Below, one piece after another: positions 16,605-31,465 of a DNA stretch of 32,000 nucleotides. The translations under genes were made by a program, and so were the position numbers. The stretch is from the NCBI RefSeq assembly GCF_000017845.1, contig NC_010547.1:150001-182000 (forward strand), written 5' to 3'. The notes beneath the pieces are model-generated. The model was given only the letters and a program-made list of their open reading frames with translations. It was not told the DNA's origin and searched no databases. Source of the stretch: Crocosphaera subtropica ATCC 51142 (GTDB lineage: Bacteria > Cyanobacteriota > Cyanobacteriia > Cyanobacteriales > Microcystaceae). Position 1 is the first letter of the stretch. The number at the start of each line of letters is the position of its first letter.

Positions 16605-19600
16605 ATGAAATTCCCACAAATTGATCGCAATTTAGCTCAACGTCAGTTAGCTCTGTTAGGACACAACATCAACAAACCTGTGTACTTGCGATTTTTCTAC
16701 CCAAGTGACGATCCACGCAAAGACGGAGACTCAGGAAGAAAAGCAGACCGACTTAATTGGAACCAAATTGAACAGTACCAAAAAGAAGGACGTGGGGCTT
16801 ATGTGGTAGTAAATGGGGGTGGACATAAAAACTCCGATGTGACCCAAGGAACTGCAATTTTTATTGAGCATGATGACCTAGAAAAAGATATCCAACGCGA
16901 ACTTTGGAAGACATTGGAACTCCCCGAACCCACATTCCAAGTGGACACCGGTGGGAAATCTGTGCATTCCTACTGGGTATTTGAAACACCGATAGAGATA
17001 GAAAAATGGTCCCAGTTGCAAAAAGACCTCCTCGAATATGCAGATGGCGATCGCTCAATTAAGAACCCTGCGCGAGTAATGAGGTTAGCAGGGGGATGGC
17101 ACATATCCTATGATGAAAACGGAAACCCTATTTATAACCAAACAAAGATTATCTCTGCATCAGCCAAGACTTATAGTTTTGAAGAACTACGAGAACTGAT
17201 TCCAGAGAAAAAAGAACGGCTACCCCTAGTAGAAGCAGCCAACCACCGTGATTTTGTAAACAATGTTTCAGACAATTTAAGCACGTCTAGTTTACCACGA
17301 CATCCTGAGCAGATAAGTGTTCCCGTATCGTCGTCGGTTCCGTTGTTGCAATGTTGCCGAAAGGAAGTCAGGGAATGGGTAACTACAGGAGTTCCCAAAG
17401 GGTGTAAACGAAACGATACAGCAATTAATGTCGGCTTAGAACTGATTGCGGTTGAGGGATACTTGCAAACCATAGGGCAAAGTTACAGTGACTCAGCTGC
17501 TTCGTTGTTCCATGAATTCTGTCAACGTAGTGGGATGACGGCTTCAGAAGAGGATGAAAGATACCAATGGTGCCAAAAGACTAATAGTGACCCAAGTTGC
17601 CCTCCAGAAGCCATAGAAGCGTGTATTAGAGCATGGTATTGGAAGGAAGTGGTTCAACCTCAGAAACGACAGAATCAAATCTTGTCAGAGGGAAGACAAA
17701 AAACAGCAACTAAGGAGAATAAGAAAGAGGAACAACCTAAGATTAATCTCCTTGATGCAGTCAAAGAAATTATCAAAGAACTGCCTCAAGACTCATTGAG
17801 ATATATGGCCTTAATTAACTTAGCAGCCCGAACCGGTTATCAATACCGTGAAATAGAGTTATTAGCCAGAACCATAGAAAGAGAAGAAACCCTAGATGAA
17901 GAAACAGCAGAAGCGATCGCATCCTTATCAACAAACCTGAATCTATACCAACAACGATTAGACATCAGCCGATACTTAGAGAAAGACTTTGCAGGGTTAA
18001 TGATAGATGCAGCCAATGCGATGCCAACAGCCCCGGAGTATTTATTTAATACGCTATTGCCAGTTGTAGCCGCCTGTGGAGGAACGAGTTCAACAGTGGT
18101 GGCTAATGGGACAGGAGGATATGAACAGCCGTTGATTTTCTGGACGGGAAATGTGGCCCACTCAGGACAAGCCAAGACACCACCGCAACAGGTGATTATT
18201 AAACCATTGACTGACTTAGAAGCAGAAGCAGCCGATAAATACAATCTTTTGAAACGGGAATATGAACAAGATAAATCAGGGGATATTCCCAGTCCCACCA
18301 GGGAAAGATTCATGATGACTAATGTAACCATCACCACCAAGATGAGGATACATGGTGAAAATCCAAGGGGCTTATTGGAATATATGGATGAGTTATCCAG
18401 TGATTTTCGTCGGTTGAATCAATATAAGAAAGGAGGTGTAGGTGACGATAAAGAACAAGAATTAAGCTTCTTTAATGGTAGTTCGATTAGTTATGACCGC
18501 AGTGATTCTCGGTTATTCCTAGATAAAACCGCTTTAAGTAAAACCGGAACGATCCAATGGGATACCTTATCTAAGTTGATGGATAATTCTGGTTTTATCG
18601 AATCAGGATACATGGCCCGGTTCTTATTGTGTTCCATTGGGAATGCCCCAAAACGGTACTTAGACCTATTCCAAGAAACCAATGCGGTTCCCGACTTACA
18701 ACACAAGTTAAGGTGGCTCTATGAGCAAATGAGAGAATTACCCGAACAGACATATTTGCTAGACCACGATGCTAAAGTTTTATTTCAAGCATGGAACCAT
18801 ACCTTAGTGGATTTTGGCATCAGAGAATATAACCATGCCTTAAGTCTGGTCTATCCCAAAATAGAATGTTACACCCTTCGCTTGGCCTTATGGTTGCATT
18901 TAGTTAATTCCTTGTTACGAGGAGAAAAACCGCATCTAGTCATTGATGGGGAAACTATGAAAGCCGCCATTGAAATGGGTTCGTTTTACTTAGGTCAACA
19001 TCGACTCATTTTTACAAATACCGACTCCTCTAATGAGCTAGAAGGAATTTTACTAAAAATCCATACTAAAGCTCTCAATGTTTACCAACAGACGGAAAAG
19101 GGGGTTAGTGCCTCCTGGGCTAAGAAAAATTTTAACGCCCTCAAAAAAATGTCCACTGACCAAATACGCGCTAAATATTTTCAAGTTCTTGCTGGTAATG
19201 GTTACGGAAAATTAGAAGGGGTTGGAAAATCAATGAAATATATTCCCTTTGAACAACGATTTTGTTTTTCTGACACTCATAATCTAGAAGTTGATGATAG
19301 TTGCAAAAGTTCTGGTAATTCGATGGAGGTATCAATTGCCGAAATGCCTATCCAGACTTGCTTTAAAGAAAAAGTTGCTAAAATTGATGACTCAACGTAC
19401 TCGAAAATTATAGACAACATACTAGATAATCAAAGTGCTTGTGTTAGTGCTTCTACTACTACTACATTCCCTATCTCAGAATTGACTCCAAATAATCATC
19501 AACTTATCAACCAATCACAGTCAAAACTAGATGCTAAGTCGCTTACAGAGGTTGAGCCACCTCCTCAATCTGAAAATCAACCACCAAAAACGAATACAGA

Positions 19601-20222
19601 CATCGAGTGGTTAATAAAATTGTTAGAAGATTTGGAACAAGCTTATTCTCTTCATACTGGCGATGAGTGGCTTGCTTTATTAAGCGAAGCAGAAGAAAAA
19701 ATTAATGGTATCGATGGATTTGATCAACAGTACCCGAATTATTGGACTCGAATCTGGGCTGCTTTTCCTGATACAGAAGAGGAAACAGAATCGACCCCGA
19801 CACTCGATGAACTAAAATCCTTGCTATTAGCTTGTCAAACTTGGGTCCAACTCAAACAACTACAGAAACAACACCCAGAACTTTGCGTAGCTGCGTACAA
19901 AGCATTAACTCCATCTGAACAAACAAAATTAGATGCGATCGCTGCCACTGAGGTCAACCAAGAAGTTTACAAATATGTAGGACCACAGAGAAAAGTCGAT
20001 GGCGTGGAAATACAACCGGGAACCCTTGTCTACTTAGATCCGCAATCCAATCAGAAAAACCGTGTCCACTTAAGAGTTCGTCTGTTGCAAGGAATTAATC
20101 AAGGCTGGCAGAAAGTAGTCGAGATATCAAAAGATGCCCTGCAAGCCGTAGAAAAAGCCGTTAACGATGGGTTAGATGTCATCGAAGGGCAACAGAGTAA
20201 TCTACTCGACGAGATAAGTTAA
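16605..20222 (+). CDS. Replication protein: N-terminal primase-polymerase (AEP-like) fused to a DUF3987-type helicase/NTPase, with a long C-terminal extension
   Basis: 1205 aa. Strong SD (AAGGAG) 8 nt upstream. Prim-pol-like motifs FIEHDD, TGGKSVHSYWVF and ARVMRLAGGWH. Central Walker-A-like AHSGQAKT in a DUF3987-like region. S/T/P/Q-rich linker followed by a ~200-aa C-terminal domain. Confidence 0.75.
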   Translation: MKFPQIDRNLAQRQLALLGHNINKPVYLRFFYPSDDPRKDGDSGRKADRLNWNQIEQYQKEGRGAYVVVNGGGHKNSDVTQGTAIFIEHDDLEKDIQRELWKTLELPEPTFQVDTGGKSVHSYWVFETPIEIEKWSQLQKDLLEYADGDRSIKNPARVMRLAGGWHISYDENGNPIYNQTKIISASAKTYSFEELRELIPEKKERLPLVEAANHRDFVNNVSDNLSTSSLPRHPEQISVPVSSSVPLLQCCRKEVREWVTTGVPKGCKRNDTAINVGLELIAVEGYLQTIGQSYSDSAASLFHEFCQRSGMTASEEDERYQWCQKTNSDPSCPPEAIEACIRAWYWKEVVQPQKRQNQILSEGRQKTATKENKKEEQPKINLLDAVKEIIKELPQDSLRYMALINLAARTGYQYREIELLARTIEREETLDEETAEAIASLSTNLNLYQQRLDISRYLEKDFAGLMIDAANAMPTAPEYLFNTLLPVVAACGGTSSTVVANGTGGYEQPLIFWTGNVAHSGQAKTPPQQVIIKPLTDLEAEAADKYNLLKREYEQDKSGDIPSPTRERFMMTNVTITTKMRIHGENPRGLLEYMDELSSDFRRLNQYKKGGVGDDKEQELSFFNGSSISYDRSDSRLFLDKTALSKTGTIQWDTLSKLMDNSGFIESGYMARFLLCSIGNAPKRYLDLFQETNAVPDLQHKLRWLYEQMRELPEQTYLLDHDAKVLFQAWNHTLVDFGIREYNHALSLVYPKIECYTLRLALWLHLVNSLLRGEKPHLVIDGETMKAAIEMGSFYLGQHRLIFTNTDSSNELEGILLKIHTKALNVYQQTEKGVSASWAKKNFNALKKMSTDQIRAKYFQVLAGNGYGKLEGVGKSMKYIPFEQRFCFSDTHNLEVDDSCKSSGNSMEVSIAEMPIQTCFKEKVAKIDDSTYSKIIDNILDNQSACVSASTTTTFPISELTPNNHQLINQSQSKLDAKSLTEVEPPPQSENQPPKTNTDIEWLIKLLEDLEQAYSLHTGDEWLALLSEAEEKINGIDGFDQQYPNYWTRIWAAFPDTEEETESTPTLDELKSLLLACQTWVQLKQLQKQHPELCVAAYKALTPSEQTKLDAIAATEVNQEVYKYVGPQRKVDGVEIQPGTLVYLDPQSNQKNRVHLRVRLLQGINQGWQKVVEISKDALQAVEKAVNDGLDVIEGQQSNLLDEIS

Positions 20223-21521: not shown

Positions 21522-22205
21522 ATGAATAAACAAGAAAATAGCTTAAGATTACCACCGACTATACCTAATATTAACCAAGAACTAGAACAAGCAATTACCT
21601 TACTCGGAAACCGAGTACAAACAGACTTAAAAGATAAAACTAAGAAAAAGTTAATAAAATTAGTGGGGGAGTATCCCACTAAAGAAACAGCGTATGAATG
21701 GAAACTATCACTAAAGCAAATAGTTAAAAAAAGTCCTATATTGCAAACTCCTAACCCCCGATCTGATACAACGTATACTACTTGTTCTTTACAAAAAGAA
21801 TCTCTAGATCGATATAGTAATGTACCTCAAAGTTTAGGAGAAACAAGAATAATACTAGATTATATAAAATATAAATTAAAGCATTACTATTTAGAGGATG
21901 AAGGACGGTACGATGAAATTTTTCTAAAACAATTAAAATATTGGTACCAATGGTTTCCTCATGATGTGAGAGAAGATGAATTCAGTAAAAAACTATTTAA
22001 AATTTGTTTAGGAGAAAAATCAAAAGAAACTTCTTCTGATTTTAATTACGTCAAGTACAAATATGATCTATTTCCAGAAATAATAACACCTTCTGAATCA
22101 GCTGAATTCATCGACCCTTTAGTACAATTGGCTTTATCAAAAGTGGATTGGAAACTATTAACAAAGCGATTATTAAAAACTTTAAATCTTGAAATTCGTA
22201 GCTAG
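21522..22205 (+). CDS. Hypothetical protein in an AT-rich insert
   Basis: 227-aa K/Y/N-rich ORF. Visibly lower G+C than its neighbours, and preceded by a 228-nt stretch that is almost pure A/T. Confidence 0.45.
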   Translation: MNKQENSLRLPPTIPNINQELEQAITLLGNRVQTDLKDKTKKKLIKLVGEYPTKETAYEWKLSLKQIVKKSPILQTPNPRSDTTYTTCSLQKESLDRYSNVPQSLGETRIILDYIKYKLKHYYLEDEGRYDEIFLKQLKYWYQWFPHDVREDEFSKKLFKICLGEKSKETSSDFNYVKYKYDLFPEIITPSESAEFIDPLVQLALSKVDWKLLTKRLLKTLNLEIRS

Positions 22206-22208
22206 CGC
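22201..22208 (+). promoter_or_regulatory. GCTAGCGC motif, copy 1
   Basis: Exact 8-mer, 36 nt upstream of ATG 22237. It overlaps the stop codon of the previous ORF. Confidence 0.5.
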
Positions 22209-22236
22209 TTATTAGCAAAAAAATTAAGAGTAACAA

Positions 22237-22626
22237 ATGATGTTAAAAGTTGTTATTGCTGCAAGTGAGGGCTTTGGAGATTATTATTTATTAGAGAGAG
22301 CGCTAGATAAAATCCTGAAAAACCATGTCGAAATTGAGTTACTATCCATCCATTCAAAAACCCTGAATCGAATTATCGACCTCTACGCTCGCAAACGAGA
22401 AGTAGTTACACGTCGATTCGTGCCTAATTTACTCAATCACGGCGAAAACGCCAAAAATATCGTTATTGAAGAAATCATCGAATACGCTTCTCACGCTATT
22501 TTATTCGTAGATGAAAACCAGGAATTAGACACGGTATTGACAAGGATTCGAGACAGTGGCTTACATTGGAGGGTCATTAAATATAAGGATGTACTCGCTG
22601 AGAAACTTTATAATCAAAAAGCTTAG
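22237..22626 (+). CDS. DUF2493/SLOG-like protein with degenerate nucleotide-binding loop
   Basis: 129 aa. The layout matches DUF2493: KVVIAASEGFGDYYLLERALDKIL ... EIELLS ... ASHAILFVDEN ... GLHWRVIKY. The usual SGGAxGxD loop is replaced by SIHSKTLN. Confidence 0.4.
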   Translation: MMLKVVIAASEGFGDYYLLERALDKILKNHVEIELLSIHSKTLNRIIDLYARKREVVTRRFVPNLLNHGENAKNIVIEEIIEYASHAILFVDENQELDTVLTRIRDSGLHWRVIKYKDVLAEKLYNQKA

Positions 22627-22676
22627 TGACTACAAACCTGGTATGATCAGGCACCCTGTGGTTGTGTTTTTATTCC

Positions 22677-22716
22677 TAGTTCTAGCTATATAATATTATA
22701 AAAATAGCTAGAACTA
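22677..22716. promoter_or_regulatory. Inverted repeat IR1: TAGTTCTAGCTAT-N14-ATAGCTAGAACTA
   Basis: Perfect 13-bp arms. The junction of the left arm and spacer forms TATAAT (22689-22694). The repeat ends 7 nt before ATG 22723. Confidence 0.5.
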
Positions 22717-22722
22717 AGTATC

Positions 22723-23367
22723 ATGCCTATAAAACAGTGCGCCTACGGATTTAGCTGTGCATCAATGATGATGCAATGGGATTTAGCCCCAGAAGATTGC
22801 CCTAACAAAGATGTGTGCGGAATAATCACGAAACTAACCGAAGAAGAAGAAATCGAACTCTATCAGGCTCGATTAGAGAATAATCGCCGCATTGTAGAGA
22901 GAATCCGTATCAATCAAGAACAAGCAGCTTTATGCCTTCTTCTTAATCGGGGGGATACCCAAACTTCTGAAAGTTTAGGAGTAACAGACACTTTAGCGGA
23001 ACTTCAAACAGCAATTTCTTTGCTAGAATCAACGATCAATGAACTAGATGAAGGATATATCGCTCCTGTCGGAGTAGAAGCACACCGTTATACTGTCAAA
23101 CGTCCCTACAATTGTTATGAGTACAATAAGCTTACCGCCAAAGATGCCATTTTCGAGCCTCAAACTAAGCACAATAAAGTAAAGGTTATCCATCTTTCCA
23201 AAGACGACGATCAGCGAAATATCAAAGGCAGAGCCGGAATAGAAAAAAGAAACAGACTCCTGGCTATCAAGAGACAAATCAAAGCAGCGACTGAATTACT
23301 GAATGAGGCTAGAGAAGCCGTTTCTAGAGAGTCAATAGATGAAGCAGTCACGAGGAAGATTACCTAA
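22723..23367 (+). CDS. Hypothetical protein (Cys-rich N-terminus, helical middle, basic C-terminus)
   Basis: 214-aa ORF bracketed by IR1 and IR2. No family recognised. Confidence 0.55.
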   Translation: MPIKQCAYGFSCASMMMQWDLAPEDCPNKDVCGIITKLTEEEEIELYQARLENNRRIVERIRINQEQAALCLLLNRGDTQTSESLGVTDTLAELQTAISLLESTINELDEGYIAPVGVEAHRYTVKRPYNCYEYNKLTAKDAIFEPQTKHNKVKVIHLSKDDDQRNIKGRAGIEKRNRLLAIKRQIKAATELLNEAREAVSRESIDEAVTRKIT

Positions 23368-23378
23368 TAATGGTATTG

Positions 23379-23416
23379 AGTTCTAGCTATTAATAACTTT
23401 ATATTTAGCTAGAACT
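23379..23416. promoter_or_regulatory. Inverted repeat IR2: AGTTCTAGCTA-N16-TAGCTAGAACT
   Basis: Perfect 11-bp arms with the same sequence as IR1. It starts 12 nt after the stop of ORF 22723-23367 and ends 7 nt before the GCTAGCGC motif at 23423. Confidence 0.5.
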
Positions 23417-23422
23417 AGAGCC

Positions 23423-23430
23423 GCTAGCGC
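23423..23430 (+). promoter_or_regulatory. GCTAGCGC motif, copy 2
   Basis: Exact 8-mer, 47 nt upstream of the terD GTG at 23470. GGAAAA lies 11 nt downstream of the motif end. Confidence 0.5.
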
Positions 23431-23469
23431 GGGGCTGTCTGGAAAATAAAACAATAGAGGTTTAAACCC

Positions 23470-24057
23470 GTGATCGAATTATCTAAAGGAATCGAACTAG
23501 ACTTCGAGAAAGCAATGCCTGAACTCGTCGCTGCTATGTTAGGCATGGGTTGGAATGTTAACAAAGACGACAGTACAGATACGACAGAAGACGACTTCGA
23601 CTTGGACTCATCTGTGTTTATGCTCGACAAGTCTGGGAAGTTACCTGACAAACATCATGTTGTTTATTACAACAATTTGAAATCCCCTGACAGCGAAGTT
23701 TGTATCGAACACATGGGTGATAACTTAACCGGTGCAGGAGAAGGAGACGACGAAGTTATCTTGTTCGATCTCAGAAAAGTCCCTGATTATATCCACAAGT
23801 TGGTTATCACTGTCACAATTCATCGGGCTCAAAAACGAAATCAGAATTTTGGCATGGTTGAGGATGCTTTTCTAAGGGTAGTCAACGTGAGTTCCAAAGA
23901 AGAAGTGTTGCGGTTCGATCTCGATGAGGAATTTACCCTAGAAACTTCTGTGATTTTGACTGAAATTTATCGGACTGACACCGGATGGGCAATCAAGGCA
24001 CTTGCCGAAGGTGTTGATGGTGGGCTTGACGAGTTGGTCAGTAAGTACACCGCGTAA
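23470..24057 (+). CDS. terD: TerD-domain stress protein
   Basis: 195 aa with a GTG start and AGAGG 9 nt upstream. TerD hallmarks are present: IELSKG start, DLDSSVFMLD, and the Ca-binding-type acidic loop GDNLTGAGEGDDEVI. Confidence 0.85.
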   Translation: MIELSKGIELDFEKAMPELVAAMLGMGWNVNKDDSTDTTEDDFDLDSSVFMLDKSGKLPDKHHVVYYNNLKSPDSEVCIEHMGDNLTGAGEGDDEVILFDLRKVPDYIHKLVITVTIHRAQKRNQNFGMVEDAFLRVVNVSSKEEVLRFDLDEEFTLETSVILTEIYRTDTGWAIKALAEGVDGGLDELVSKYTA

Positions 24058-24094
24058 CCTCTCGCAAACCCACTTAGCAACAGACTTTTAGCAC

Positions 24095-24142
24095 TCCGCA
24101 GCAACTACTGTTTCTCTTATAGAATACAGTGGTTGCTGCGGA
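24095..24142 (+). repeat. Hairpin repeat copy 1 (TCCGCAGCAAC...GTTGCTGCGGA family)
   Basis: 17-bp outer stem with one T-G wobble, plus a 4-bp inner stem and a CTTAT apical loop. It starts 38 nt after the terD stop. Confidence 0.8.
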
Positions 24143-24263
24143 TATTAGTGACCAAATCCTTTAGGTATAAAGTTACTCACTATGTCGTGGGTAACTCTAT
24201 ATTTTTGACAAAGATGTTCGATTTCTAATAATGCTGAAAATCTTGGTATTACTTTGTTTGAGG

Positions 24264-24315
24264 CTTCCGCAGCAACTACTATTTCTCTTATAAATTATAG
24301 CGGATGCTGCGGAAG
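24264..24315 (+). repeat. Hairpin repeat copy 2
   Basis: CTTCCGCAGCAACTACTATTTCTCTTATAAATTATAGCGGATGCTGCGGAAG. The 11-bp outer stem is perfect; the inner stem is degraded (A-A, T-G, A-C). Confidence 0.8.
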
Positions 24316-24386
24316 TATTGAACGCTTATCAGTTACGGAATAAAAGCTGATATTAGAATTAATAACTTAGGTTATAACTTTTTTCG

Positions 24387-24409
24387 GTCTACGAATCGTA
24401 GACTCTTTT
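24387..24409 (+). terminator. Weak intrinsic terminator
   Basis: GTCTACG-AAT-CGTAGAC stem-loop followed by TCTTTT. Confidence 0.4.
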
Positions 24410-24468
24410 AGAGGCTTCATTTTTTGCGCCAATCCTTTTCGGCAAAGTTTTAGTCATGTTGTTCTACC

Positions 24469-24476
24469 ACTAGCGT
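24469..24476 (+). promoter_or_regulatory. Near-match ACTAGCGT (CTAGCG core)
   Basis: Matches the motif at 6 of 8 positions, 40 nt upstream of ATG 24509. Confidence 0.3.
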
Positions 24477-24508
24477 TGGTTGGTCCGATAGTTAGAAAGA
24501 ATCAAAAA

Positions 24509-24988
24509 ATGCCACCAACAAGAGAATTCTCAGACCGAATCCCTGTCGGGCGACTAATTGTCCAGAAAGCTTGCATCGAGGTAGCCGTGGATAGATTAAA
24601 TGAAATCTACGAGGGAAACGAGATTGCTGCTTCTATTCTGTTAGAGTTGAAAATGGCTGCTAAATTAGCAGAGGTCTTTAATGAAACGTGGTCCTCAGTT
24701 TACTGGCTAGAAGCAAGGAAACGAACCCGCGATCGCGTAAAAATGACCCTGAAAGACATAGCAGCAAAAATAATCGACCATGTGGAAGAAGCTATGACAC
24801 TTTTTGATGAGCTTTGCGATGAACAAGACGTAAATCCAACATTGGAATTATCGAATCAATGGATCGCGTTTCAAGCAGGGCTAGACCTAATAAAAAGAGA
24901 CCTGCAATATCACGACGATTTTGTAAAGAGGAACTCTATTGAGTATTTGCCCATTATTAGACTCATCGAGGAAAATTCAAAAAAATGA
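24509..24988 (+). CDS. Hypothetical helical protein
   Basis: ATG 24509 is preferred over the TTG at 24476, because a CTAGCG-core motif lies 40 nt upstream of it. 159 aa. The stop overlaps the next start (ATGA). Confidence 0.55.
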   Translation: MPPTREFSDRIPVGRLIVQKACIEVAVDRLNEIYEGNEIAASILLELKMAAKLAEVFNETWSSVYWLEARKRTRDRVKMTLKDIAAKIIDHVEEAMTLFDELCDEQDVNPTLELSNQWIAFQAGLDLIKRDLQYHDDFVKRNSIEYLPIIRLIEENSKK

Positions 24989-25218
24989 AAGATATTGATC
25001 AATTGATCTCTGACCTGCGACTGGTTGGTAAGCTAAGTCATTCAGCTATAACCCATAATCAACGACAAGTTACCCACCTATGCTATCCCAGAAGTCAGAA
25101 AACACTGTGCGGACTGTGTTGTAAGACTTTGACATCAATAGACGTAGTTGGGTCAGAGATTTGTGCAAACTGCGAAAGAGTAGCCAAAAAACTACAGGCT
25201 AGCGCCAACAACAAGTGA
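24985..25218 (+). CDS. Small zinc-ribbon protein
   Basis: 77 aa with CGLCC ... CANC (CxxC-N17-CxxC). Translationally coupled to the upstream ORF through a 4-nt overlap. Confidence 0.55.
   Translation: MKDIDQLISDLRLVGKLSHSAITHNQRQVTHLCYPRSQKTLCGLCCKTLTSIDVVGSEICANCERVAKKLQASANNK
25198..25205 (+). promoter_or_regulatory. GCTAGCGC motif, copy 3
   Basis: Exact 8-mer, 46 nt upstream of ATG 25244, inside the last codons of the Zn-ribbon ORF. TGAAAA lies 11 nt downstream. Confidence 0.5.
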
Positions 25219-25243
25219 AAACTAAGCTTAAAGGAGCAAACCG

Positions 25244-25477
25244 ATGGAATTTCTAAAAGAACACGTAGCTGATTACCTATCAAACCATCCTGAGTTAGTT
25301 TCACCTTTTACCAGAGGGGATGAAGAAGCCCTAGAAACCGTTATCGAAAGTACCGAATTGCAGATCTTTATCAGTGAACAGAGAGACGGGAACCCAACCG
25401 ATAGCGATTATGATTGGCTCATCGAATCTGTCTGGGAATTGAGCGAGGATAAAACATTTATCGATGCGATCGCCTGA
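25244..25477 (+). CDS. Small, highly acidic protein
   Basis: 77 aa, rich in D/E. AAGGAG lies 9 nt upstream and GCTAGCGC 46 nt upstream. Confidence 0.55.
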   Translation: MEFLKEHVADYLSNHPELVSPFTRGDEEALETVIESTELQIFISEQRDGNPTDSDYDWLIESVWELSEDKTFIDAIA

Positions 25478-25483
25478 CAAAGT

Positions 25484-25534
25484 TTCCGCAGCAAGGACTA
25501 TTTTCTATAAGAGAAATAGAACTTGCTACGGAAG
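25484..25534 (-). repeat. Hairpin repeat copy 3 (inverted orientation)
   Basis: The reverse complement, CTTCCGTAGCAAGTTCTATTTCTCTTATAGAAAATAGTCCTTGCTGCGGAA, matches copy 1 at about 40 of 48 positions. Its one stem mismatch is a wobble only when read on the minus strand. Confidence 0.8.
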
Positions 25535-25601
25535 CTATATTCCTTACCCCGTCTGCAATAGAGAGTAATACGCAGTCATGTTTCATCGCCCTTTTTTTTT
25601 T

Positions 25602-25609
25602 GCTAGCGC
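25602..25609 (+). promoter_or_regulatory. GCTAGCGC motif, copy 4
   Basis: Exact 8-mer, 45 nt upstream of ATG 25647, immediately after a T10 run. TGAAAA lies 11 nt downstream. Confidence 0.5.
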
Positions 25610-25646
25610 AGGGTTGGTTTGAAAAGCAACTAGGTGAGGGCAATTC

Positions 25647-27302
25647 ATGCAAACCTTTCAAATCACAGTCGATAGTAATGTTTTAGAAAAAGCTAAACAC
25701 TTTTTCAATTCAGGATTGAACGATATTCTTAACGAACTTCTACAGAATGCCCGTAGAGCAAAAGCCTCCTGTATTTGGATTAGAACCTATATCGAAGACG
25801 GTATGCGCTTTTGTTCTATCATGGACGATGGAGAAGGCATTTTCAAAGAGGATGTCAGAATAGCTCTAGGTGGAAGTGATTGGGACTCTGAGATCCAAGA
25901 ATCAGAAAATCCTGCGGGATGCGGACTATTCTCGTTAGCAAACCGAGGATGCCAAATCGAGGCTAATGGAAAAAGAGTAAATATCACGTCAGAAGCCTTT
26001 ACCGGGAAAATTCCAGTAGCAATCGAAGAGACTGAATTTAGTAACGGAACAAGAATTGATTTTGTGCTTAACGCTGAAGAATCTGAAAGCCTTGAAGAAA
26101 CAGTCAATAAGGCGACTAAGTATTATTCTTTGCCAGTGTATTTCGAGCGTACCAGGATAAAGCGACGTGATTTCCTCGAAGCCGCTTTGTTCATCAAAGA
26201 ATGGTCTGGGCTACGGATTGGTGTCGTAGAAGAAACCTATTGTTGGCATGACGGAGAAATAAACTTTCATGGTCTTACCGTAGAGCAAAACTTTTCTCAT
26301 ATTCTTCTCAGTAAAGCCCGTGAAATTTATCGAGTAAAATACCTGACTACACGGATCGAGGTCATTGATTGCCCTGAATTAAAGCTCGTCTTACCTGCGC
26401 GGAAAGAAGTCGTGCAAAACGAGTTTCTAGCCCAACTTCAAGTGGAGTGTGAGCGCACGATTTACGAGTACATCCGCAAGTTATATGCACACCGACTCCC
26501 GTATCAGTCATGGGAAAAGGCAAAGACTCTAGGCGTTGACCTGCCTGAAGCAGAACCTAAGTTATACACCTGGGTTCCTGATTGCTTGGATAATTACAGT
26601 GGTTGTAATGGAGAGTTAGTCGATGTCAATGACCGATGCTTATTGGTCGATGTGACTGACGAAACCTATGACCTTGCTGATTACCACGTATTTGCCCATG
26701 CTTGGAACCGATCAGGGAACGGGATTCTCCTAGAGCCTGATCCCGATTATGCAGGGTATTCTTGGTATAATGCCTTGACCAAAATCGTGGACTTCTCGGT
26801 AATTGTCCAATTAAGGGACGAGAAAGAGCCCTTAGAACGGTGCATGAGAAGTACCAAGTTTCAGCGCCCAGACGATATCAGAATCATCTATTTCACTCTG
26901 AAGGGAAACGCTGATAAAGAACCATTAGCCAATAAACTATCCACTGACATTGCTTTCATTTCGGAACTCGATGACGGAATTTGGGGTGGAATCGAGGATG
27001 TGACCTTACTCATCACCAAGGATAGTGAAACCAACACCGAAACTCTCAATCGTCTTCTAATGAATGTTTACTTCCAAACAAGTGATTGTACTGATGAGTT
27101 TGGCTATGATACCCAACGAGAAATGTTCAGTAGCGAAATTAACCAACTGATCAACTCTGTTCTTCATGATGAAGACTACGCGAACCGCCAGAAGATAGCT
27201 GAATTAGCACAGAAGGTTCTAGCGTGGGAAACACCATACGGCAAAACAACTCAAATCACGATTAAGCCGGGTGGCAATATCGACGTAACATTCATCGACT
27301 AG
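25647..27302 (+). CDS. GHKL-superfamily ATPase (Hsp90/MORC-like Bergerat fold) with ~400 aa of unassigned C-terminal sequence
   Basis: 551 aa. N-box ILNELLQNARRA, G1 box DDGEGI, G2-like GCGLFS. Confidence 0.65.
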   Translation: MQTFQITVDSNVLEKAKHFFNSGLNDILNELLQNARRAKASCIWIRTYIEDGMRFCSIMDDGEGIFKEDVRIALGGSDWDSEIQESENPAGCGLFSLANRGCQIEANGKRVNITSEAFTGKIPVAIEETEFSNGTRIDFVLNAEESESLEETVNKATKYYSLPVYFERTRIKRRDFLEAALFIKEWSGLRIGVVEETYCWHDGEINFHGLTVEQNFSHILLSKAREIYRVKYLTTRIEVIDCPELKLVLPARKEVVQNEFLAQLQVECERTIYEYIRKLYAHRLPYQSWEKAKTLGVDLPEAEPKLYTWVPDCLDNYSGCNGELVDVNDRCLLVDVTDETYDLADYHVFAHAWNRSGNGILLEPDPDYAGYSWYNALTKIVDFSVIVQLRDEKEPLERCMRSTKFQRPDDIRIIYFTLKGNADKEPLANKLSTDIAFISELDDGIWGGIEDVTLLITKDSETNTETLNRLLMNVYFQTSDCTDEFGYDTQREMFSSEINQLINSVLHDEDYANRQKIAELAQKVLAWETPYGKTTQITIKPGGNIDVTFID

Positions 27303-27310
27303 ACAAGAGA

Positions 27311-27338
27311 GAGAGGAGGCTTCGGCCTCTTCTTTTTT
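27311..27338 (+). terminator. Intrinsic terminator after the GHKL gene
   Basis: GAGAGGAGGC-TTCG-GCCTCTTC stem with a TTCG tetraloop, followed by a T-run. Confidence 0.75.
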
Positions 27339-27431
27339 CCGACAAAATCCCGACGAAATCTAGCACGAAAAACCGACTAAGTTTAGGGCATTATAAAGTA
27401 ACCTATATCTCAGACTGGGCAAGGATTACAA

Positions 27432-27482
27432 CCTTCCGCAGCAGTTACTATTTTTCTTATATAAAATCGTGGTTGCTGCGGG
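27432..27482 (+). repeat. Hairpin repeat copy 4
   Basis: CCGCAGCAGTTAC ... GTGGTTGCTGCGG: a 13-bp stem containing three consecutive G-T/T-G wobbles, an A/T inner stem, and a loop containing CTTAT. Confidence 0.8.
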
Positions 27483-27502
27483 TAGCTTTTGATCTGTCAA
27501 TC

Positions 27503-27687
27503 GATTGCAGATTGCCGAGGGCAGATTGTAGATTGACCCCTGCTTGAAAGACAGTGGCTTGGGATTAAAGATTGTAGATTTTAGATTAATTGTTGATTGT
27601 TGAGGGTAGATTTCAGATTGACCAATGCTTGAAAGTCAAGGCTTGTTCTTACTTAATCTCCAATCTGCAATCTCCATTCTCCAATCT
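27503..27687. repeat. AGATTG / CAATCT repeat array upstream of dnaX
   Basis: About 9 forward (A)GATT(G) units lie in 27503-27620, and 4-5 inverted CAATCT units lie in 27655-27687. GATTGCAGATTG (27503-27514) is the exact reverse complement of CAATCTGCAATC (27661-27672). A ~31-nt direct repeat, AGATTGACCnnTGCTTGAAAG..GGCTTG, occurs at 27530 and 27615. Confidence 0.8.
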
Positions 27688-27698
27688 TTGGTCAGGAG

Positions 27699-27706
27699 CC
27701 TAGCGG
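27699..27706 (+). promoter_or_regulatory. Near-match CCTAGCGG (CTAGCG core)
   Basis: Matches the motif at 6 of 8 positions, 44 nt upstream of the dnaX ATG at 27743. Confidence 0.3.
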
Positions 27707-27742
27707 CTGGTCATCTTGACAAAGATATTAGGAGCCAGTCTT

Positions 27743-28861
27743 ATGCCCAACGTAAAAACAAAACAAGCTTTTCAACCGTGGCACTTAAAATATCGCCCTC
27801 AATCAATCAATGATTTGACGGGGCAAGACTCAGTACAAAAGGTATTGACCCGATTGATCACGGAAGATTCCGTACCTCAAGCCTTGTTGTTATCTGGGCC
27901 TAAAGGCACAGGAAAAACTAGCACTGCTCGGATTATTGCCATGAGTTTGAACTGTGAGAAAGGCGTGACCACAACGCCCTGTGGCGAGTGCAAGAACTGC
28001 AAAGCCATACAAAACGGTAACAGCTTAGACGTTGTAGAGCTTGATGCCGCTTCGCATAATGGCGTTGATGATATCAGAAAGTTAGTTGCTGATGCGGGCT
28101 ATGCTCCGTTCTCTGCGCGTACCCGTGTGTTTATCATTGATGAAGCCCATCAACTTAGTAATTCTGCACAAAATGCTTTTCTTAAGACCCTTGAAGAACC
28201 CAACAACCATACCAAGTTCTTACTAGCAACCACCGAACCTCACAAAATGCTAGAAACAGTGAGGAGTCGCTGTTTACCCCTTCGCTTCCGACCCATTTCC
28301 CAATCAGAAGTGGCGCAGCGACTAGAGGACATTGCTAAGAAAGAGGGAGTCTCCATTGATGATAGTTGCCTAGAAGCGATCGCCCGAAGTTCTAAAGGGG
28401 GGATGCGCGATTCGATTCAACTTCTCTTTGAGGTGTTTTGCCACAAAGAAGGAGACGAACCAGTCAAAGTCGATAAAGTCTATGAAGTGACGAAGGAGCT
28501 TAATCCCACGCAAGTTGAATTCTTGCTATCGGCGGTAGCTCAAGGAGATAGCTACAATTTAGTTCGGTGTTGCAACGCGATTGAAGAGTCAGCCCTCGAT
28601 ATCAACAAAGTCTTTGATGCGTTGTTGACTGCATGGACGGACGTTATGGCAGTTGTCCTAGGAGCCAACCCGAAGCAAATCGCCAAAACCTCAATTTTAG
28701 GTACAGAGAACTTAGAGACACTCAGTCAGAAACTCGACTTAACCATGCTGACAGTGGGGCTAGAAAAGTTAGACCAAGCTGAAAGACGCATTGCGACCTC
28801 TTCTAACAGTAGTCGCTGGCTGTTAGCTACTTTATTGTCCTTAGTCAATGGAGGTGAGTGA
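27743..28861 (+). CDS. dnaX: DNA polymerase III gamma-like clamp-loader ATPase (short DnaX, no tau C-terminal domains)
   Basis: ATG 27743 (AGGAG upstream) is preferred over the TTG at 27716. Walker A GPKGTGKT, Zn module CGECKNCKAI, Walker B FIIDEAH, and SRC motif VRSRCLPLRF. Only ~372 aa. Confidence 0.85.
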   Translation: MPNVKTKQAFQPWHLKYRPQSINDLTGQDSVQKVLTRLITEDSVPQALLLSGPKGTGKTSTARIIAMSLNCEKGVTTTPCGECKNCKAIQNGNSLDVVELDAASHNGVDDIRKLVADAGYAPFSARTRVFIIDEAHQLSNSAQNAFLKTLEEPNNHTKFLLATTEPHKMLETVRSRCLPLRFRPISQSEVAQRLEDIAKKEGVSIDDSCLEAIARSSKGGMRDSIQLLFEVFCHKEGDEPVKVDKVYEVTKELNPTQVEFLLSAVAQGDSYNLVRCCNAIEESALDINKVFDALLTAWTDVMAVVLGANPKQIAKTSILGTENLETLSQKLDLTMLTVGLEKLDQAERRIATSSNSSRWLLATLLSLVNGGE

Positions 28862-28862
28862 T

Positions 28863-29768
28863 ATGCTTTATGTCATCGCAGGAGACGACACCTTCCGAAA
28901 GTCAGAAAAGATCGCAGCAATCATCAAAGAAGGGGACTACGAAAGGTTTAATGTAGTTTCCCTCGAAGATGCGATTAGGGATGCACTGAGTCCAGGTCTG
29001 TTCTCAAAGAAAGCAATGGTATTTGAGGGCAAAGAGATTCCTTACAAGGATTCTAAGCCTTTAGAACCTGTTGTGAATAGTGAAAATGCCGTGATTCTCG
29101 ATATTACTTCTGTAGATGGTCGTACCAAGTTAGGTAAATGGCTAAACAAACAAAAGTGTGTTGAAAGAATCAACGCGCTAAACCAATTCCAAGAAGATAA
29201 AATCAAAGCCGAACTAGCGATGCGATCGCTTAAATTGGGACTTGACCTAAGTATCCATGCTAAACAGTATTTATTAGAAGCGGTTGGGCCAGACATTGGA
29301 AGAATGCAAAGAGAACTAGAGCTAATCAAAGCCTATTTCGGAGATGGTCAGGTTCTTGCCACAGAGTTACCGACGTTAGTACCGGATTATGCACAAACTA
29401 GCTACCAACTAGCAACAGCACTGACCGAATTCCCAAAGACAGTCTATGAACGGACTCAAAGTTTAATTGACCTTGGGATTCATCCATTGCAAATCTTGGC
29501 AACTCTTATCAATCGCATAGAAAAGCTTATGCTCACCGCCATTGGTATAGAGTCAGGGTTAGCAAGAGAACAGATAGCAGAGGAATTGCTGCACCTGCCC
29601 AATAATGGACGAGTATTCTACCTCATTAAAGACGTGGAATATCTCTCAGCAAAGCAACTACAGCAAGCTTTTGTTGAATTGTGCGGGCTTACTCATCGAC
29701 TGAAACGAGGCACTCAGACTGAGAGACTGCCTCTTGAATTGGCGCTGATTGCCTCAAAGTTAGCATAA
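28863..29768 (+). CDS. holA: DNA polymerase III delta-like subunit (HolA family)
   Basis: ATG 28863 lies 1 nt after the dnaX stop, with GGAGGTGAG upstream. MLYVIAGDD start, and collinear similarity by eye to HolA blocks (AKQYLLEAVGPDIGRMQRELELI, PLQILATLINRIEKL, LSAKQLQQAFVEL). Confidence 0.7.
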   Translation: MLYVIAGDDTFRKSEKIAAIIKEGDYERFNVVSLEDAIRDALSPGLFSKKAMVFEGKEIPYKDSKPLEPVVNSENAVILDITSVDGRTKLGKWLNKQKCVERINALNQFQEDKIKAELAMRSLKLGLDLSIHAKQYLLEAVGPDIGRMQRELELIKAYFGDGQVLATELPTLVPDYAQTSYQLATALTEFPKTVYERTQSLIDLGIHPLQILATLINRIEKLMLTAIGIESGLAREQIAEELLHLPNNGRVFYLIKDVEYLSAKQLQQAFVELCGLTHRLKRGTQTERLPLELALIASKLA

Positions 29769-29777
29769 CTATGCAAA

Positions 29778-29808
29778 AGCTAGGTTTTAGACCTGGCTAT
29801 TTTTTTTT
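29778..29808 (+). terminator. Intrinsic terminator after holA
   Basis: AGCTAGGT-TTTAG-ACCTGGCT 8-bp stem followed by A plus T9. Confidence 0.75.
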
Positions 29809-29892
29809 ATCTAGTTGTGGGGAAGCCACGCTTTCTACCTTCTTAAAAATCAGTGTGCGGAGTCGTTACTAGGTTGCTCCACGGAAAATAAC

Positions 29893-29900
29893 GCTAGCGC
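29893..29900 (+). promoter_or_regulatory. GCTAGCGC motif, copy 5
   Basis: Exact 8-mer, 42 nt upstream of ATG 29935. Confidence 0.5.
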
Positions 29901-29934
29901 GAATGTCAATGACAAGTTATTGGAGGCTTCGTTT

Positions 29935-30120
29935 ATGATTTGTCCAATCATTGCACAATATGCTCGTATCGTTGAAGTTCATCTCTTTCAGGAGTACGTT
30001 ACAATTTTTGTAGAAGGACGCGGTACTTTTCACGTTCGTATGCTAATGAGCAAATTAGCTTGTTCTTTAGAGGATAAGCCCTATTCTTCTTGTAACCGAG
30101 AAGACGGAATTCCTTTCTAG
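29935..30120 (+). CDS. Small hypothetical protein (61 aa)
   Basis: ATG 29935 is preferred: GGAGG lies 8 nt upstream and GCTAGCGC 42 nt upstream. The longer 29815 start would begin just after, and reads through the region of, the holA terminator. Confidence 0.5.
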   Translation: MICPIIAQYARIVEVHLFQEYVTIFVEGRGTFHVRMLMSKLACSLEDKPYSSCNREDGIPF

Positions 30121-30129
30121 GAAATTACT

Positions 30130-30154
30130 AGCCCTCGATAGGGCTTTTTTTTTT
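30130..30154 (+). terminator. Intrinsic terminator
   Basis: AGCCCT-CGAT-AGGGCT followed by T10. Confidence 0.8.
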
Positions 30155-30179
30155 GCTATTGTTGAATGAGAAAATAAAT

Positions 30180-30187
30180 GCTAGCGC
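30180..30187 (+). promoter_or_regulatory. GCTAGCGC motif, copy 6
   Basis: Exact 8-mer, 43 nt upstream of ATG 30223 and 26 nt after a terminator. Confidence 0.5.
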
Positions 30188-30222
30188 AAGATTAAACGAC
30201 CTTAAAAGATACCAGTGAAAAT

Positions 30223-30408
30223 ATGTGCGAAAACAGAGTCACCCTCAATATTTCTGAACGAGAGTTAGCCACTATACTGGCCTCTTTAGAATTATTCAGA
30301 AAGGAACGAGCAAAGGAAGACTTTAGACCATATTCAGAGCAATTCGAGGAAATTGAGCCTCTGACAGTTGAAGAAGTGGATAAGCTTACTGACTATCTGG
30401 AAAATTAG
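30223..30408 (+). CDS. Small hypothetical protein (61 aa) consisting of one RELATIL...EPLT domain
   Basis: The ORF sits between a promoter motif and a terminator. It is paralogous to residues 83-130 of the next gene product. Confidence 0.55.
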   Translation: MCENRVTLNISERELATILASLELFRKERAKEDFRPYSEQFEEIEPLTVEEVDKLTDYLEN

Positions 30409-30415
30409 AGAATTG

Positions 30416-30445
30416 GAGCTAGGTGTCATCCCAGCTCTTTTTTTT
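30416..30445 (+). terminator. Intrinsic terminator
   Basis: GAGCT(A)GG-TGTCATC-CCAGCTC followed by T8. Confidence 0.7.
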
Positions 30446-30448
30446 CAG

Positions 30449-30456
30449 GCTAGCGC
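30449..30456 (+). promoter_or_regulatory. GCTAGCGC motif, copy 7
   Basis: Exact 8-mer, 41 nt upstream of ATG 30490 and 4 nt after a terminator T-run. Confidence 0.5.
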
Positions 30457-30489
30457 CAGTTAAAGCGACCTTTATTCGCTTAAAAACTA

Positions 30490-31329
30490 ATGAGCAATCA
30501 AAATAAAGCATGGGATTTATATCTTAAGGGAAACAAGCTCGCAGAAGAACAGAAGATCGAAGAAGCGATCGCAGTCTATAAAGAATCAATTGATCTCTAT
30601 CCCCACCATGAAGAAGTTTATAATAACTTAGGGGTTCTTTACCATGACTTAGGCAAACACGAAGATGCAACCGCGTTTTTTGAGCAAGGAATTGCGATCG
30701 CCATGAGAAATACCAAGGCTCCCAGTCCTCAGTTTAATCCCAGAGAATTAGCCACGATATTAGTGGCACTCCGATTGTTCCAGAGAACGCCAAGTGTAAA
30801 GAAGCAACTATTAGAATATTTCGAGGAAACCGAACCCTTAACTGCGTCTGAGATAGATGAGTTATGTGAACGACTCAACTGTTCATGCTCAAGCACAGAC
30901 CTCGCATCCAAAACACTAAATATTAGTGAAAGGCTGACAGCGATCGGGGAAATCGAAGTTTTAATGGCTGAGAGTTACAGAATAAGGACATTGACTCGAA
31001 TTTGGGCTACTTTTCCTGAAATTACCTCAGTCGAATTTGCCGAGATTGAAGAAGGTACTGAGGTGGCACCAGGAACGATTGCTTTGACCGATATTCAGTT
31101 TATAAGCGAAGATTCTGCTACAGAGATTATCAAACGAAATAATCTTGAATTAGTCTCAGATCAATATCGTATAGAAGGGGATTCACTACAATTCTGGCAA
31201 TATCTCCTTTTATCAACATCGCCGACAGAAAAACTTATCGGTAAGCATGACCGTCCCGACGAGCTACCGAATCTTATCGATGTTATCGAACAAGTTTCCG
31301 ATCTGGGGAAACGCTTAGCAATCGACTAG
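30490..31329 (+). CDS. Hypothetical protein: N-terminal TPR pair, RELATIL...EPLT domain, unassigned C-terminal half
   Basis: 279 aa. TPR-like AIAVYKESIDLYPHHEEVYNNLGVLYHDLGKHEDATAFFEQGIAI. Central NPRELATILVALRLFQ...FEETEPLTASEIDELCERLN. Confidence 0.6.
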   Translation: MSNQNKAWDLYLKGNKLAEEQKIEEAIAVYKESIDLYPHHEEVYNNLGVLYHDLGKHEDATAFFEQGIAIAMRNTKAPSPQFNPRELATILVALRLFQRTPSVKKQLLEYFEETEPLTASEIDELCERLNCSCSSTDLASKTLNISERLTAIGEIEVLMAESYRIRTLTRIWATFPEITSVEFAEIEEGTEVAPGTIALTDIQFISEDSATEIIKRNNLELVSDQYRIEGDSLQFWQYLLLSTSPTEKLIGKHDRPDELPNLIDVIEQVSDLGKRLAID

Positions 31330-31360
31330 CGTCAGTAAACTTAGAAAGATTCATTTAACT

Positions 31361-31384
31361 AAGGGCATTATGCCCTTTTTTTTT
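31361..31384 (+). terminator. Intrinsic terminator
   Basis: AAGGGCA-TTA-TGCCCTT followed by a T-run. Confidence 0.8.
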
Positions 31385-31457
31385 GATGTAGGATGCACCT
31401 CCGACGAGTTACAGCGATTTTGATCAGTTATTTCGACAAATCAAAGAGGGGGAAAGG

Positions 31458-31465
31458 GCTAGCGC
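31458..31465 (+). promoter_or_regulatory. GCTAGCGC motif, copy 8
   Basis: Exact 8-mer, 43 nt upstream of ATG 31501. Confidence 0.5.

Follow-up and report, generated by a model that had tools for sequence, protein, structure and literature searches.

The repetitive extragenic palindromes (REP) and bacterial interspersed mosaic elements (BIME) of enterobacteria and pseudomonads are short imperfect palindromes which lie strictly between genes, often after stop codons or between the genes of an operon. They occur in both orientations and sometimes as inverted pairs, combine a conserved stem with a variable interior, and have been proposed to stabilise mRNA 3' ends or to bind proteins. The RNase III sites of phage T7 (R0.3 to R18.5) are another well-known group. 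These hairpins, some ten in number and related to one another, are ~20 bp long, contain an internal loop, lack a U-run and stand between the genes of one replicon, upstream of the next gene start. The present analysis concerns a family of hairpins from the cyanobacterium Crocosphaera subtropica ATCC 51142, four copies of which lie in a stretch of 32,000 nt (NC_010547.1, positions 150,001–182,000; hereafter the window, to which all coordinates refer). An earlier note had pointed out these four copies and had argued from the wobble pairs in their stems for selection on an RNA. With a probability of about 0.4, the hairpins are read here as REP-like gene-boundary stem-loops specific to an element resembling a plasmid or an integrative and conjugative element (ICE), recognised through their lower stem and presumably in the form of RNA.

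The likeness to both systems is considerable. The architecture of the hairpin, with a stem of 8–10 bp, a 4x4 internal loop, ~7 bp and a loop, matches that of the T7 RNase III sites; it is likewise an irregular intercistronic hairpin of ~20 bp without a U-run, repeated between the genes of one replicon and upstream of the next gene start. It differs from the T7 sites in its cyanobacterial host, its plasmid-like replicon and the inversion of some copies. As with REP and BIME, the palindromes are short, imperfect and strictly intergenic, often follow stop codons, occur in both orientations and sometimes as inverted pairs, and couple a conserved stem to a variable interior; by analogy, a role in stabilising mRNA 3' ends or in binding a protein may be proposed. 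However, REP sequences are present in hundreds of chromosomal copies, whereas a strict scan met the present family on one plasmid-like element only. Moreover, its 46-nt members have a hypervariable 4x4 segment and no 5' GTAG, and are coupled to a gene-start box. Membership of the REP/REPIN class associated with REP-associated tyrosine transposases (RAYT) was rejected, since the intergenic palindrome is accompanied neither by the 5' GTAG-type tetranucleotide nor, in the strict genome scan, by chromosome-wide dispersal of tens to hundreds of copies (diverged ones could escape it), nor by a RAYT gene; no Y1 transposase was found among the annotated open reading frames (ORFs).

All four copies that the earlier note had reported were recovered with their common geometry by a pattern search and a repeat search (Table 1). 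The pattern CCGCAGCA-N30-TGCTGCGG matches at 24096–24141, 24267–24312 and 27436–27481, with no match in 100 dinucleotide shuffles (N20–40 allowed), and the repeat search pairs these three copies with the inverted one at 25484–25535. Each copy has the same layout (8 + 12 + CTTATA + 12 + 8 = 46 nt) and each is intergenic as described before, lying after terD, before the ATG at 24509, after a small ORF and after the terminator of the GHKL gene, respectively; the neighbouring genes encode TerD, three small uncharacterised ORFs, a GHKL ATPase and a clamp-loader-like pair. On their own strand the copies fold at −21.6 to −33.1 kcal/mol (z −5 to −8.8), and the opposite strand is nearly as stable (−18.5 to −29.3 kcal/mol). 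The view that they are not classical terminators was also borne out: no true T-run follows any window copy, only CTTTTG being found after copy 4 (weakly flagged by the terminator scan), and the element has separate canonical terminators. A promoter scan and inspection revealed no consistent sigma-70 −35/−10 pair within the hairpin, and neither tRNA nor tmRNA was detected.

Table 1. Positions of the hairpin copies and of the associated features in the window.
Feature	Position	Strand	Remarks
Hairpin copy 1	24095..24142	+	gene-end type, terD stop codon 38 nt upstream; 68.5 bits (covariance model)
Hairpin copy 2	24264..24315	+	upstream of ATG 24509; 66.7 bits (covariance model)
Hairpin copy 3	25484..25534	-	inverted, 8 nt past the stop of the 77-aa ORF 25244-25477; 64.9 bits on -, 41.0 on +
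Hairpin copy 4	27432..27482	+	3' end of the ~170-nt repeated long unit, after the terminator of the GHKL gene; 71.5 bits
Terminator-like hairpin + T-run	24171..24206	+	downstream of copy 1
Sigma-70-like promoter TTGACA-16-AATAAT	24205..24232	+	between copies 1 and 2; 11/12 matches
GHKL-gene intrinsic terminator	27307..27338	+	GC-rich stem + T-run; opens the long unit
Conserved unstructured segment of the long unit	27339..27431	+	CGAAATC.AGCACGAAAAA..GCTAAGTTTAGGGCATTATAAA..CTCTAT.TCAGTCTGG.TAAGGATTATAACC; alignment of 13 units, three genomes
GCTAGCGC box	25602..25609	+	70 nt past copy 3, 37 nt before the GHKL start codon
Other GCTAGCGC boxes	22201, 23423, 25198, 29893, 30180, 30449, 31458	+	
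Degenerate box ACTAGCGT	24469..24476	+	32 nt before ATG 24509, downstream of copy 2
Degenerate box CCTAGCGG	27699..27706	+	36 nt before the clamp-loader start at 27743
Insertion, 193 nt	27498..27690		heptamer-repeat-rich, MITE-like (miniature inverted-repeat transposable element); splits copy 4 from its box, this genome only
DUF3987 primase-helicase gene	16605-20222		

The region shares ~90% identity with one contig from Cyanothece sp. BG0011 and ~84% with NZ_AAXW01000052 from Crocosphaera chwakensis CCY0110. By looser matching, 35 distinct copies of 46–47 nt were collected in the related loci of these two strains. A covariance model built from the distinct copies was then searched against 145 kb, with simple ORF calls; the weakest member scores ~50 bits, noise does not exceed 22 bits, and the gap between is empty. 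No decayed copy was detected in this search, and all of the ~40 copies are intergenic. A fifth copy lies on the source contig ~1 kb past the window end. Copies are closely spaced, CCY0110 contig 52 having 10 within ~22 kb and one BG0011 contig 6 within 5 kb. All four window copies occupy orthologous sites in the three genomes, with no presence/absence polymorphism at 84–90% identity. The BG0011 version of copy 1 is identical and the CCY0110 version orthologous; in copy 2, all eight variable positions (both 4-nt segments) have changed between the window and CCY0110. Copy 3 is inverted in 3/3 genomes, and its lower stem bears a C-to-T change (CCGTAGCA), to which BG0011 adds a second one (CCATAGCA), the CCY0110 copy being intact. 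Two further members, 51–52 nt long and with the same lower stem and a CTAT...TTATAA core, occur in loci L018 and L019, where the GHKL protein is only 39% identical. The more distant GHKL relatives (L016, L021, L022, L265, L266 and L267) have no hairpin.

Conservation within the hairpin is highly uneven. In the lower stem, (T)CCGCAGCA/TGCTGCGG(A), each position is unchanged in 33–35 of the 35 copies; its 5' outer end is (T/C)CCGCAGCA and its outer ends are TCCGCAGCA/TGCTGCGGA. Above it, four positions on each side are hypervariable and are paired in only 40–70% of copies, followed by one C-G and one T-A pair, both invariant, and by an AT-rich, often mismatched upper stem. The 5' half of the upper stem and loop, CTATTTTTCTTATA, is far more conserved than the 3' half. 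Between orthologues, identity amounts to 97% in the lower stem, 82–90% in the flanks and 62% in the 4x4 segments. An integron attC site was rejected, as the outer ends are not RYYYAAC / GTTRRRY and no integrase gene lies beside the arrays examined.

The genome scan was made on one genome per species with a pattern requiring CTTATA and exact stems, by which diverged copies elsewhere may be missed. Its matches fell in CCY0110 (3 contigs) and BG0011 (5 contigs), all in plasmid-type context, apart from one chance match. There is no true member among the IMG/VR matches listed and no match in the phage collection, on which grounds a phage origin was discarded. PLSDB holds no DNA match to the long unit or to 22200–25700, and a metagenome scan with the bare stems gave, among the matches listed, chance matches and an unrelated gut palindrome and no new true members. 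Rfam yielded nothing at gathering score and, in a permissive search, only chance miRNA-like matches at E>1. A description of the hairpin or of the GCTAGCGC box was not found in the literature.

With respect to genes, the copies fall into two classes. Class A copies, including copies 1 and 3, lie 4–64 nt past a stop codon in either orientation. Class B copies, including copy 4, form the 3' end of a ~170-nt unit composed of a terminator with T-run, a conserved unstructured segment of ~95–110 nt and the hairpin; such long units precede small paralogous genes and the gene for ribonucleotide reductase (RNR) alpha. The conserved segment contains a CATTAT/CATAAT −10-like hexamer and no −35, and no consensus structure was found in the long unit beyond the hairpin. 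Copy 2 starts 32 nt 3' of the −10 hexamer of an unrelated, strong sigma-70-like promoter, ~25 nt downstream of the start site it implies, and by its position would belong to the 5' leader of the ATG-24509 operon. The long unit also recalls the promoter-early stem-loop (PeSL) cassettes of T4-type phages, repeated composites of a terminator stem-loop and a promoter which flank small ORFs (PMC2839356, PMC4122927). It is similarly a repeated terminator plus promoter-like region flanking small uncharacterised ORFs, and its copies and the genes are arranged differently in BG0011 and in CCY0110, the breakpoints being approximate and the promoter putative. In contrast to PeSL, the replicon is not a phage (no true member among the IMG/VR matches listed), an additional hairpin follows the promoter-like part, and the T4 early-promoter consensus is lacking.

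The hairpins are coupled to a gene-start box, GCTAGCGC, which may be more notable than the hairpins themselves. The window contains 8 copies of this octamer where 0.28 would be expected; they are confined to the + strand and to the interval 22201–31458, and each stands 28–39 nt 5' of a start codon. In the related loci, 76 of 78 distinct instances are on the gene strand and the spacing to the ATG has its mode at 33 nt. The box is present in loci L001–L019, L021 and L265, among them the distant L016, L018, L021 and L265 with GHKL proteins only 36–39% identical, and precedes almost every start codon of the mobile-element part. It often stands directly 3' of a terminator T-run and has no partner at −35/−10 positions; its core, TAGCG, may be loosely similar to the ops element GGCGGTAGCGTG. 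Hairpins commonly lie 8–25 nt 5' of a box (at least 12 copies at 10–19 nt), and inverted ones 53–70 nt. The degenerate box CCTAGCGG comes 23 nt after copy 4 in relatives without the 193-nt insertion, which is absent at the orthologous sites in BG0011 and CCY0110 (L002, L003).

The argument from wobble pairs proved less robust. The earlier note had counted six G-T pairs against one A-C in the stems of the four copies and had taken this bias as a hint of selection on an RNA in the orientation of each element. The six G-T pairs are correct, but the single A-C depends on the register of the upper stem, the symmetric register giving 6 G-T against 4 A-C. Over 32 distinct 46-nt copies, the mismatches number 37 G-T and 28 A-C. 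Covariation, which had been put forward as a check, does not exceed that of shuffled controls either: in 35 sequences, positions are paired in 81.4% as compared with 81.3% after column shuffling, the covariation score is 0.094 against 0.100, and no count of compensatory pairs exceeds that of the controls. All departures from Watson-Crick pairing in 13 long units are G-U and never A-C, but as these units are recent paralogues the bias is not independent evidence; RNAalifold found only the hairpin in them, with 0 compensatory pairs. A tally of orientation relative to genes, made by hand over 24 independent sites with orthologues merged, gave ~15 sense, 7 antisense and 2 ambiguous sites, or ~9:7 when the seven duplicated long units are counted once. 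Because covariation equals that of shuffles, G-T and A-C stand at 37:28 and both orientations occur (about one third of the independent sites being inverted), there is no statistical sign of selection on one RNA strand, and the inference from wobble to an RNA read in its own orientation is not supported. Support for a structured RNA was likewise found neither in covariation nor in an Rfam match.

The hairpins are carried by what appears to be a mobile element. HIP1 octamers, a cyanobacterial mark, occur in the window, of which 1–16 kb contains ordinary cyanobacterial genes. From ~16.6 kb on, genes of mobile-element type follow, encoding the DUF3987 primase-helicase, a SLOG protein, TerD, the GHKL protein and the clamp loader. 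An exact match to the GHKL protein was found in only two Logan read-set assemblies. Related contigs add ParA/ParB, both RNR subunits, a TopoIII-like topoisomerase, 3'-phosphoadenosine-5'-phosphosulfate (PAPS) reductase, a group II intron and an IS605-type tnpB. Distant GHKL homologues (31–39% identity) are encoded in one-directional arrays near SSB, ParB, toxin-antitoxin pairs and a type IV coupling protein; the array of this kind carried by a Sphingopyxis plasmid is accompanied by a MobF relaxase. These arrays match the leading regions of conjugative plasmids (PMC11541004). Owing to this gene content and to the leading-region-like arrays of the relatives, the right half of the window is probably part of a conjugative plasmid or ICE.

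As the copies are strictly intergenic, none is decayed, orthologues are kept and the lower stem is conserved across deep divergence, the palindrome is considered to be selected and element-specific. Moreover, since it follows stop codons in either orientation and forms a ~20 bp stem with an unconstrained internal loop, recognition would concern the symmetric lower stem rather than a strand-specific loop, and gene-end copies in both orientations fit a function that needs this stem only. In the proposed mechanism, the element carries small genes which all run in one direction (TerD, GHKL ATPase, clamp-loader pair, RNR, ParAB, TopoIII and DUF3987 primase-helicase), an array similar to the leading region of conjugative plasmids. 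The 46-nt palindrome at a gene boundary, either after a stop codon or within the duplicated unit of terminator, conserved region and hairpin, would be transcribed as a stem-loop of ~20 bp. Its invariant lower stem, UCCGCAGCA/UGCUGCGGA, might then be read by a factor binding double-stranded RNA, such as an RNase III-type enzyme or a protein encoded by the element, whereby the transcripts of neighbouring genes would be separated and stabilised, as with REP elements and the T7 RNase III sites. The probability is put at about 0.4 because recognition as RNA and as DNA are not distinguished. Several points weigh against this reading. With no covariation at all, selection on pairing cannot be told from selection on sequence, and the invariant stem and conserved 5' half CTATTTTTCTTATA suit a sequence-specific DNA-binding site at least as well. 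The copies in long units sit downstream of a terminator, and if GCTAGCGC acts as a promoter, transcription would start only downstream of many copies. Additionally, no candidate binding protein was identified, and restriction of the family to this element is not fully proven given the strict scan pattern (CTTATA, exact stems). Among the roles listed in the earlier note, a protein-recognised hairpin at the gene boundary remains the best reading; the wobble argument for its RNA nature is not supported.

The strongest competitor, though an unlikely one, is a duplex DNA operator, i.e. a palindrome bound by an element-encoded global regulator comparable to KorB/KorA, which would control GCTAGCGC-type gene starts or block read-through. 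Such an operator would explain why both arms are invariant, why the 5' half is asymmetrically conserved without covariation, why both orientations are present and why the spacing to the box is as tight as 8–25 nt; in addition, the elements encode ParB and helix-turn-helix proteins, and in the strict genome scan the hairpin was found only on plasmid-like contigs. The KorB/KorA operators of IncP-1 plasmids similarly comprise ~10 identical palindromes, spread plasmid-wide in intergenic positions near gene starts. However, those are contiguous palindromes of 12–13 bp, while here 28 bp separate the conserved arms (37 bp between their centres), an uncommon distance for a dimeric operator, and the arms are able to fold into a stable hairpin. 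An operator would have no need of arms with perfect hairpin potential, and some gene-end copies, e.g. copy 1 and L006 3015, have no box or promoter nearby.

A signal acting in single-stranded DNA is less probable still. On this view, the transferred or lagging strand would fold into the hairpin, which would be read by the primase-helicase, as a priming site of the single-strand initiation (ssi) type, or by another enzyme specific for single-stranded DNA. The combination of a conserved lower stem and a free interior resembles the recognition of ssiA/ssiB of RSF1010, a DUF3987 primase-helicase is encoded on the element, and a Prim-Pol in a relative. The leading-region-like context also agrees, with one-directional small genes, SSB/ParB/toxin-antitoxin/ArdC-type neighbours in relatives, the coupling protein and the MobF relaxase (PMC11541004). 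Nevertheless, one orientation would be expected, yet ~7 of 22 independent sites are inverted. The Frpo/ssi promoters of conjugative-plasmid leading regions are long hairpins with −35 and −10 elements in the stem (PMC11541004), and like them the present hairpins are repeated, structured intergenic elements upstream of one-directional genes in a leading-region-type array. A promoter of this kind was rejected, since the ~20 bp stem of the 46-nt element is far too short, a TTGACA/TATAAT pair is lacking, and there is no long hairpin around it, the flanks (tested for copy 4) forming no long stem. A broader and rather speculative proposal, to which little probability is assigned, is that the hairpin families and the strand-specific GCTAGCGC box, placed ~33 nt before almost every start, constitute a dedicated cis-regulatory code of a previously undescribed family of cyanobacterial conjugative elements. 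The palindromes would act in newly transferred single-stranded DNA or in the first transcripts, as sites for an element factor starting priming or early expression, and would thus offer a small-hairpin alternative to Frpo-type promoters.

A selfish miniature palindrome of the MITE or REP kind, which would have multiplied inside the element without serving it, could account for the many copies in both orientations, for the lack of covariation, for chimeric copies made from two 'left halves' (L003 7098, L008 230), for an inverted tandem pair in L013 and for the IS605/IS607-type genes nearby. It is nonetheless very unlikely, as the flanks have no target-site duplications, presence/absence polymorphism is wanting among three genomes at 84–90% identity, the lower stem is kept at 39% protein identity, and no Y1/RAYT transposase was seen in the loci examined. 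A MITE was rejected for the first two of these reasons, all four copies being orthologous. The scatter through genes that the earlier note had associated with a selfish repeat was not observed; the copies are never intragenic, never decayed and, in the strict genome scan, were met only on plasmid-like contigs. Lastly, an orientation-specific RNA module along the lines of that note, in which the long unit would be a small-RNA gene or nut/put-like antitermination site under sense-strand wobble selection, is just as improbable, for although the 13 long units deviate from Watson-Crick only by G-U, transitions are tolerated opposite the 3' arm TGGT, the long units and copy 2 are without exception sense-oriented downstream of −10-like hexamers, and antitermination would be useful where a terminator follows nearly every gene, the wobbles of these recent paralogues are not independent events, the family-wide ratio is 37:28, inverted copies are conserved and Rfam gives no match.

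Cyanobacterial plasmids and ICEs are poorly understood. In the present case, an array of mostly uncharacterised genes appears to be organised by a few conserved cis-elements, namely hairpins of three families and a gene-start box of 8 nt, and some of these persist across elements whose proteins are <40% identical. If the hairpins and the box are recognised by one regulatory or processing machinery, they would make the timing and insulation of genes on such elements directly accessible to experiment. Furthermore, the elements would become easier to recognise in metagenomes, and portable gene-boundary parts for cyanobacterial engineering might be obtained.

The second hairpin family, TAGTTCTAGCTAT-(AT-rich loop)-ATAGCTAGAACTA, is found in the window at 22678–22716 and 23379–23417, flanking the ORF 22723–23367, and elsewhere in L004 (6041/6742), L002 (6469/7169), L009 (5984) and L019 (108–139). 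It has the CTAT...ATAG upper part in common with the first family and a wholly different lower stem; in the L019 lineage, a second-family hairpin lies 30 nt from a copy of the first. A third, small hairpin, GTCTACG-NNN-CGTAGAC, is located at 24387–24403 in the window and at L001 1788, L006 2226, L007 4121, L005 5216 and L012 3675, 4296 and 4747, usually followed by T-rich sequence and then GCTAGCGC; from its sequence it looks like a family of related terminators. On the Sphingopyxis macrogoltabida plasmid NZ_CP009431 (L264), a different box, GAAGGGG(A)GGGGGAGG, stands ~45–55 nt 5' of leading-region start codons, upstream of the genes at 4898, 14238, 14977, 17708, 18395 and 24750. Gene-start boxes peculiar to a lineage may therefore be common to such arrays in general.

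The gut palindrome met in the metagenome scan is an abundant element of ~95 nt, GTAGCGGAGGTCTCCGGCC-TCCGCAGCA...TGCTGCGGA-GGCCGGAGACCTCCGCTAC, on contigs of ~53% GC, many of them labelled human-gut (L025, L031, L038, L040, L063, L084–L086, L142 and about 30 other metagenome loci). The 9-nt stem that it shares is a coincidence arising from the search pattern and lies within a longer stem beginning with GTAG; the palindrome looks like an element of REP/REPIN type.

The 193-nt insertion consists of GATTGCA/GATTGTA-type heptamers with inverted ends and an internal repeat (27504–27553 / 27589–27638). A PLSDB search showed 33 nt of it to be identical to a Nostoc sp. CENA543 plasmid, and its AATCTGC heptamers also adjoin a GCTAGCGC box in L016. 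In BG0011 only, a 1.6-kb insertion sequence (L002 3965–5563) lies 4–5 nt 3' of copy 2, at the site orthologous to 24316–24318 of the window, and carries a truncated N-terminus of a MerR-like IS607-type recombinase and a 410-aa TnpB/OrfB_IS605 gene. Differences in gene content and order among the three genomes fall at the repeated intergenic modules (L005 vs L006/L011; window 29808–30179 vs L003 5083–5089). A one-gene indel ends exactly at the GCTAGCGC box at 30180, and one long unit adjoins the small-gene array on one side in BG0011 and on the other in CCY0110, which suggests module-mediated shuffling.

The left part of the window encodes a MazF/PemK toxin (98–442, − strand) with an upstream ribbon-helix-helix antitoxin-like ORF (436–672), a CHAT-TPR protein (6530–8887), and a two-partner secretion pair made up of a TPS-domain exoprotein (9111–11720) and a ShlB-type transporter (11694–13346). 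These toxin-antitoxin, two-partner secretion and CHAT-TPR genes lie left of the mobile-element part and are ordinary cargo for a cyanobacterium.

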